This document shows, piece by piece, positions 1 through 300 of a stretch of DNA of 300 nt. The stretch is taken from the NCBI RefSeq assembly GCF_003334385.1, contig NZ_QOWN01000211.1. One strand, given 5' to 3'. The stretch comes from Escherichia coli (lineage in GTDB: Bacteria; Pseudomonadota; Gammaproteobacteria; Enterobacterales; Enterobacteriaceae). The notes under the pieces were generated by a model that was not told the DNA's origin, searched no databases, and saw only the letters and a program-made list of their open reading frames with translations. The translations under genes and the position numbers were made by a program. Position 1 is the stretch's first letter. Every line of letters starts with the position of its first letter.

Positions 1-300
1 GCCACTGCCATTGAAGCCGGTGATGAACGTCGCGCCCGCGCAAAATTTCACTGGCAATTCCTGGAACATTATCCGGCTGCTCAGGACTGCGCTTATAAAT
101 TTCTTGTCTGCGAGGATAAACCCGGTATACCCCGCCCTGCCCTAGATTCCTGGGATGCTGAATATATGCAGGAAAACCGCTGGGATGAGGCGTCTGCTTC
201 CTTTGTCCCGGTTGAGACTGAATCAGATCCGATGAACGTCACTTTTGACAAGCTGGCCCCTGAAGTACAGAACGCTGTCATGGTTAAGTTCGACACATGT
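1..300 (+). CDS. Partial CDS (internal fragment, both ends outside the window) encoding an acidic hypothetical protein of unknown family; at least 100 codons
   Basis: Seen in sequence: frame 1 has no stop codon across 100 codons, whereas frame 2 hits TAG at 142-144 and frame 3 hits TGA at 10-12. Arg codons are exclusively CGT/CGC (28-30, 31-33, 37-39, 133-135, 178-180), with no AGA/AGG/CGA/CGG. Leu is mostly CTG, Glu mostly GAA, Gly is GGT. Amino-acid composition is protein-like, with 3 Trp, 3 Cys and a mix of hydrophobic and charged residues. No in-window start: the internal ATGs at 166, 232 and 280 lack a well-placed Shine-Dalgarno. Product identity was not determined. Confidence 0.78.

Follow-up and report, generated by a model that had tools for sequence, protein, structure and literature searches.

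A 300-nucleotide stretch of an Escherichia coli prophage exonuclease gene encodes a noncatalytic part of a conserved head

The DNA analyzed here is a stretch of 300 nucleotides (nt) from Escherichia coli (RefSeq assembly GCF_003334385.1, contig NZ_QOWN01000211.1), called the window below and always meant at its full length. It is virtually certain that the window corresponds to codons 25 to 124 of an 830-codon exonuclease gene of lambdoid prophages, and the anatomy of the encoded protein is known with the same assurance. The region is folded, conserved, and noncatalytic, and it belongs to a multidomain protein of the recombination type, which begins with a head made of the domains YdfE_N and YdfE_C. 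This head is carried by effectors of unrelated chemistry in a single genomic slot, which argues for a common accessory function. The head may thus be a noncatalytic accessory module of phage recombination proteins, a proposal that we find attractive while giving it somewhat less than even odds. For the explanation as a whole, in which the identity of the gene and the function of its head are taken together, we estimate a probability of about 0.6.

A segment of a widespread prophage gene

The full-length coding sequence (CDS) is found in strain NCTC86 (L001:5929-8421, 830 codons; WP_021533631.1), and the residues encoded by the window are 100% identical to residues 25 to 124 of its product. Of 5,426 complete E. 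coli genomes, 3,885 contained a match to the window, the number of copies in a genome reaching six, and the gene also occurs in the phages mEp460, Evi, Tritos, and HannyBb and in the PPompW group. Each of the 15 listed copies that are identical to the window falls within a CDS annotated as exonuclease, and in NCTC86 this CDS is intact, with its 830 codons. An earlier note, made from the letters of the window alone, had mentioned a small acidic regulator as a possible function. The fragment is no free-standing regulator of this kind, being residues 25 to 124 of an 830-amino-acid (aa) multidomain prophage exonuclease. The sequence itself is already known: RefSeq contains hundreds of copies identical to it, most E. 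coli genomes have it, and it belongs to a named Pfam family. What remains of interest is the role of the head, given that the same head is found on annealase and nuclease domains alike.

One head on four types of C-terminal domain

We used local hidden Markov models (HMMs) to classify the 33 representatives that are 500 aa or longer according to the C-terminal domain carried with the YdfE_N/YdfE_C head. This domain was Rad52-like in 18 representatives, of unknown type in 9, DnaQ-like in 3, and RecE-nuclease-like in 3. In the first group it spans around 290 residues and is Rad52-like by fold. The head is usually accompanied by the RecE-like middle region, and wherever a locus is long enough to show it, the gene encoding the head directly precedes xis/int. 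The contig of the RecE-type relative P0151 stops short of int; the gene is followed there by an overlapping RecT-like gene (L009:3530-4354; phrog_561, E = 3.5e-101). The fourth C-terminal type (phrog_26058) covers residues ~400 to 627 of P0178 (L012:5001-6884), was also seen in P0123, P0185, P0189, P0194, and P0200, and had no match in Pfam and no sequence match in the PDB.

Families and predicted structure of the head

The window was assigned to PF27430 (YdfE_N) and PF27432 (YdfE_C) through the precomputed annotation of its homologs, which uses a newer Pfam release. Both families are listed on P0001 (98% identical, residues 1 to 245) and P0116 (823 aa, 96% identical over the full length), and also on the distant homologs P0177, P0151, P0123, and P0178. 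Where a homolog aligns with only the later portion of the query, PF27432 is the sole one of the two that it carries. In PHROGs, the window matched phrog_2082 (labeled “exonuclease”; positions 25 to 124, E = 1.6e-73), phrog_5943 (E = 5.4e-73), and phrog_31653, the latter two being labeled as of unknown function, and the full protein matched phrog_2082 over positions 1 to 823 of 823 with 1,861.8 bits. Judged from its sequence, the window belongs to Pfam YdfE_N/YdfE_C and to phrog_2082.

Other resources returned little. In the Pfam-A release that we searched, the window and the N-terminal alignment were unmatched even at E ≤ 10, because this library predates YdfE_N and YdfE_C, and NCBIfam placed the window in no family. 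Sequence and profile searches of the PDB with the N-terminal module gave noise only (E ≥ 0.24), a Foldseek search of AFDB50 returned same-family members only, and PADLOC found nothing for the head, its sole match being a DEDDh model at the C terminus. The earlier note's view that the family could not be recognized is therefore correct for the older Pfam-A and for NCBIfam, which place nothing; it fails in that the families are named, as YdfE_N, YdfE_C, phrog_2082, and phrog_5943, all of them uncharacterized. The note had allowed for a match to a characterized housekeeping protein, and none was found. An exhaustive HMMER search of 1.84 billion representatives retrieved just 94 relatives, around 35 of which are long proteins at 20 to 58% identity. 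The genera represented in AFDB50 were Escherichia, Shigella, Salmonella, Enterobacter, Serratia, Yersinia, Klebsiella, Rahnella, Mixta, Cedecea, and Buttiauxella.

An AlphaFold2 model of the head (m6adb2422deef), built from an alignment of 34 N termini (A1), had a mean predicted local distance difference test (pLDDT) score of 90.6. In this model, the window extends from strand 2 of YdfE_N to the first helix of YdfE_C, a domain that is all helical over residues 111 to 228. The linker between the two domains measures 13 to 33 residues in homologs, with a mean net charge of −2.8.

Conserved positions in the window

Conservation was assessed in the same alignment (34 homologs at 18 to 44% identity). 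Conservation is highest at Ala30, Ala36, Pro49, the loop E62-D63-x-P-G-x-P-R-P70, Trp85, and Leu109 (30/34). Within the loop, Glu62, Asp63, and Arg69 are each kept in 23 homologs, Gly66 and Pro68 in 26, and Pro70 in 29. The two Trp-Asp motifs singled out in the earlier note turned out to be genuine conserved aromatic-Asp/Asn positions. Position 75 is Phe in 19 homologs, Trp in 13 (Phe or Trp in 32/34), and Leu in 2, and is followed by Asp in 20/34; position 85, which lies within strand 83-86 of the model, is Trp in 28 and Phe in 4, and position 86 is Asn in 18 and Asp in 12. Both aromatic residues are conserved core or surface positions. When the 100 residues of the window were shuffled, which was our basis for all chance estimates, two or more WD dipeptides arose with a P of 0.02, so that the pair is mildly unusual. 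An origin of the motifs by internal duplication was rejected, since they belong to different structural elements, one before helix 77-82 and the other in strand 83-86.

Proposed role of the head and alternatives

If the head is an accessory module, its role would be one that is common to proteins of recombination or DNA end processing and independent of the chemistry of the effector. The likeliest such role would be a protein-protein contact, meaning either self-association or the recruitment of the protein to a partner from the host or the phage, for which the EDxPGxPRP loop and Trp85 would be candidate contact points. A more specific version, which we consider rather doubtful, is that the head could be a portable adaptor on interchangeable effectors (Rad52-like, DnaQ, RecE-type, and the fourth domain) in the lambdoid phages of Enterobacterales, delivering each of them to the same partner. 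If true, this would reveal an unrecognized modular family of phage recombination proteins and offer a way into the N-terminal part of RecE-like proteins, which has long lacked an explanation. A partner of the head would also explain how “orphan” nucleases near int serve phages devoid of a canonical Rec module.

Several points weigh against an accessory role. No partner of the head has been identified, and literature searches on YdfE, on PF27430, on Rv2179c-like proteins in connection with phages, and on mEp460 turned up no functional study of the protein and no experiment on YdfE_N. An action of the head on DNA is just as conceivable, by way of the basic helix of YdfE_C at residues 185 to 207, outside the window. 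Finally, the gene has been inactivated independently, by IS2 in K-12 ydfE (L002:4079-4999) and by a frameshifting deletion in PPompW_EH2246 (L007:3001-5468), a PPompW phage of an enterohemorrhagic E. coli (EHEC) O serogroup; because of these repeated inactivations, the exonuclease gene seems dispensable for the resident prophage.

The charge of the head could point to another function, that of a DNA mimic or antidefense module. It would obstruct a DNA-binding enzyme of the host, such as RecBCD or a restriction enzyme, and leave the work on DNA to the C-terminal domain. The fragment is acidic, as the earlier note had observed (19 Asp and Glu against 10 Lys and Arg), and this is a trait of the family, the stretch equivalent to the window having a mean net charge of −7.7 in homologs (range, −16 to −2). 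Next to the exonuclease gene, DnaQ-type phages also have neither a canonical Rec module nor a gam-like gene, and RecBCD is required by related lambdoid phages that have no Rec modules (PMC12315714). Yet the acidity is a property of the whole 830-aa protein (net charge of −63) and not specifically of the head, the first domain is near neutral in many homologs (net charge of 0 to −1 in about one-third), and PADLOC recognizes nothing in the head. The concentration of acidic residues in the second half of the window, which the note had emphasized, is itself unremarkable (net charge of −8 or lower, shuffle P = 0.13). We regard a DNA mimic as improbable.

A head that controlled or inhibited the C-terminal exonuclease of its own protein, and so gated it, would account for the presence of a large noncatalytic region ahead of the nuclease, and the long, flexible acidic linker (net charge of −30 over residues 440 to 648) would let the head fold back. 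However, the same head is found on four unrelated C-terminal domains, most often on the non-nuclease, Rad52-like one, and because of this a specific fit of the head to the DnaQ active site is disfavored; gating of this kind has a low probability in our view.

The conservation data effectively refute the idea that the C-x6-C pair is a small metal-binding or redox module. The window does have two cysteines seven residues apart, but Cys54 is kept in 1/34 homologs and Cys61 in 13/34, two cysteines within seven residues are unremarkable in shuffled sequences (P = 0.37), there is no third or fourth ligand nearby, and the real cysteine cluster of the protein is located at residues 558 to 572, outside the window. 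What the note had presented as a Cys pair is thus not a motif of the family.

Reading frame and genomic setting

Frame 1 encodes 100 residues and is the sole stop-free frame among all six. It is also the frame used by the annotated RefSeq CDS, since the window (L001:6001-6300) begins 72 nt, or 24 codons, past the CDS start at 5929. Compared with K-12 ydfE, 14 of the 16 differences in the window are at third codon positions, and 14 of the changed codons are synonymous and 2 nonsynonymous. Because other natural variants also differ from the window mainly at the third codon positions of frame 1, this frame is under purifying selection. The translation in frame 1 proposed by the earlier note is thus supported by both the annotation and the third-position bias, and a script reproduced its charge arithmetic and the coordinates of its cysteines and motifs. 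The chance that frame 1 is fortuitous, the window being noncoding, coding on the minus strand, or part of a decayed pseudogene in the source genome, is negligible: there is a minus-strand open reading frame (positions 93 to 296, 67 aa) and some copies of the gene are pseudogenes, but frame +1 alone is stop free and agrees with the third-position bias, the 15 identical copies lie under exonuclease CDSs and the one in NCTC86 is intact, Rfam matched neither strand of the window, and the AlphaFold2 fold is confident. The window contains no Chi site.

Of the large genes in the early-left (dicB-ydfD-ydfE) operon of lambdoid E. coli prophages and phages, this one comes last, with xis and int directly downstream. 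The NCTC86 prophage is inserted beside ompW and has the gene order repressor, ydfA-ydfB-ydfC, Rha-family regulator, dicB, a DUF1482 gene (in the position of ydfD), exonuclease gene, xis, and int. The DnaQ-type loci (L001 and L004) have no annealase gene anywhere from the repressor to int. In K-12, a promoter located ahead of dicB drives the cotranscription of ydfE with dicB and ydfD, and the genes that it controls are repressed by DicA (PMC11430063). A SIR2_2 gene (PF13289; L010:1-293, L011:1-284), which may be a prophage-borne defense gene, is located at the edge, on the replication side, of the ompW-integrated prophage in which P0123 is encoded.

The protein outside the window

Residues 649 to 820 match the Pfam family Rv2179c-like (PF16473; E = 3.4e-67). 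The exonuclease motifs D653xE655 and H803x4D808 are present, and the NGANFD stretch within residues 731 to 760 is read as the putative Exo II motif. The DEDDh model of PADLOC matches residues 650 to 814, and the PDB entry 8kel_A (“Exodeoxyribonuclease,” 227 aa) matches residues 650 to 783 (E = 1.5e-6). The 830-aa protein is, by sequence, a DnaQ-like DEDDh 3′-5′ exonuclease. Catalysis is predicted to take place in the C-terminal domain, and none of the putative catalytic residues falls within the window (Table 1).

The acidic middle region includes two adjacent arrays of 21-bp tandem repeats (L001:7456-7550, residues ~510 to 541), which encode repeats of the NSPNALQ type. Alleles of 823 and 830 residues exist, and the 7 residues between them equal a single repeat unit in length. 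In the acidic linker preceding the DnaQ domain, residues 558 to 572 (~L001:7600-7644) form a CxxC-x7-CxxC pattern (CTACGQTGGGNCPDC), a possible zinc knuckle.

Table 1. Features of the window and layout of the encoded protein (residues numbered on the 830-aa protein)
Feature	Residues	Position in window (nt)	Strand	Basis or remark
Exonuclease gene segment	codons 25-124	1-300	+	100% DNA identity to L001:6001-6300
YdfE_N (PF27430), larger part	25-94	1-210	+	AlphaFold2 block pLDDT 96-98, Pfam, PHROGs
Acidic interdomain linker, variable length	95-110	211-258	+	pLDDT mean 81 in the 91-100 block
Start of YdfE_C (PF27432), with its first helix (111-121)	111-124	259-300	+	AlphaFold2 model, Pfam on homologs
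C-x6-C pair	Cys54, Cys61	88-111	+	Lineage specific
Cys codons		88-90, 109-111, 298-300	+	
Loop E62-D63-K-P65-G66-I-P68-R69-P70, the domain's most conserved surface-type motif	62-70	112-138	+	A1 column counts
Aromatic-Asp motifs SWDAE and RWDEA	Trp75, Trp85	148-192	+	Aromatic character kept
SWDAE		148-162	+	Script-checked
RWDEA		178-192	+	Script-checked
DERRARAKFHW		22-54	+	Script-checked
YdfE_N alpha/beta domain	strands 3-11, 24-30, 56-62; hairpin 83-86/91-94; helices 13-19, 33-47, 49-53, 77-82			Model
Layout of the 830-aa protein	YdfE_N ~3-94; acidic linker; YdfE_C ~111-228; RecE-like middle ~245-632; DnaQ-like domain 649-820			

Comparison with known systems

The closest named counterpart is K-12 ydfE (Qin prophage pseudogene b1577), with 96% protein identity over residues 1 to 255 and the same place in the operon, behind dicB-ydfD. 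The Pfam families YdfE_N and YdfE_C take their names from this protein. IS2 interrupts K-12 ydfE past codon 255 and leaves it without the middle region and the nuclease domain, whereas the window's gene is the intact form; K-12 ydfE is the IS2-truncated ortholog.

The Rv2179c-like DEDDh enzymes (PF16473, 8kel_A) share with residues 649 to 820 of the window's protein the same domain and the DxE and Hx4D motifs. They are single-domain proteins of ~170 to 230 aa, whereas this domain makes up only the last fifth of the 830 aa here, and the likeness is entirely outside the window.

Rac RecE, or exonuclease VIII (866 aa), resembles the window's protein in its large size and its origin in the lambdoid early-left operon. 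The middle region (~245 to 632) is homologous to the non-nuclease part of RecE: in BLASTP, residues 262 to 632 aligned with RecE residues 278 to 591 at 38% identity, and the match ends at RecE residue 591. The RecE equivalog model of NCBIfam (PRK09709) matched residues 245 to 632 only (model positions 270 to 602), with 269.5 bits against a cutoff of 1,269. The two proteins differ in their nucleases and their neighbors, since RecE has a PD-(D/E)XK 5′-3′ nuclease and an adjacent recT, whereas the window's protein has a DnaQ-like 3′-5′ domain and no adjacent annealase gene. Pfam matched its C terminus to Rv2179c-like and RNase_T only, with no Exonuc_VIII or DUF3799, and no RecT-type neighbor was found in L001 or in phage Tritos, where xis and int come directly after the gene. 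Because the PRK09709 score is below the cutoff and both the PD-(D/E)XK domain and an adjacent RecT gene are lacking, the protein lies outside the RecE equivalog family. Several records (the L001 gene and the phage records H16, H18, and H19) name it “exodeoxyribonuclease VIII” or “exonuclease VIII, ds DNA exonuclease.” The absence of the domain and of the neighbor makes this label unjustified, and it looks like annotation carry-over; the mislabeling is widespread and concerns a nuclease of the opposite polarity class.

The N-terminal part of RecE is noncatalytic and of unknown function (PMC11611040). The window has no counterpart in RecE: YdfE_N was undetected in RecE residues 1 to 260, and profile-profile, HMM, and BLAST comparisons with RecE residues 1 to 300 aligned only after residue ~165. 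An in-register HMM alignment of RecE residues 62 to 86 with the PRP...W loop of YdfE_N had a nonsignificant score of −3.5 and could be due to chance or be the trace of a very remote homology.

Zheng et al. (2025) described DnaQ-type nuclease genes near int, outside the canonical Rec modules, and “RecE-2” proteins that lack a nuclease domain, assigning no role to the former or the latter (PMC12315714). The Rad52-like relatives found here may be these “RecE-2” proteins, which is a guess on our part. These Rad52/Mgm101-type relatives (phrog_2489 and phrog_7838), such as P0177, have the same head, the same RecE-like middle, and the same genomic position as the window's gene, and where they have an annealase domain, the window's protein has an exonuclease.
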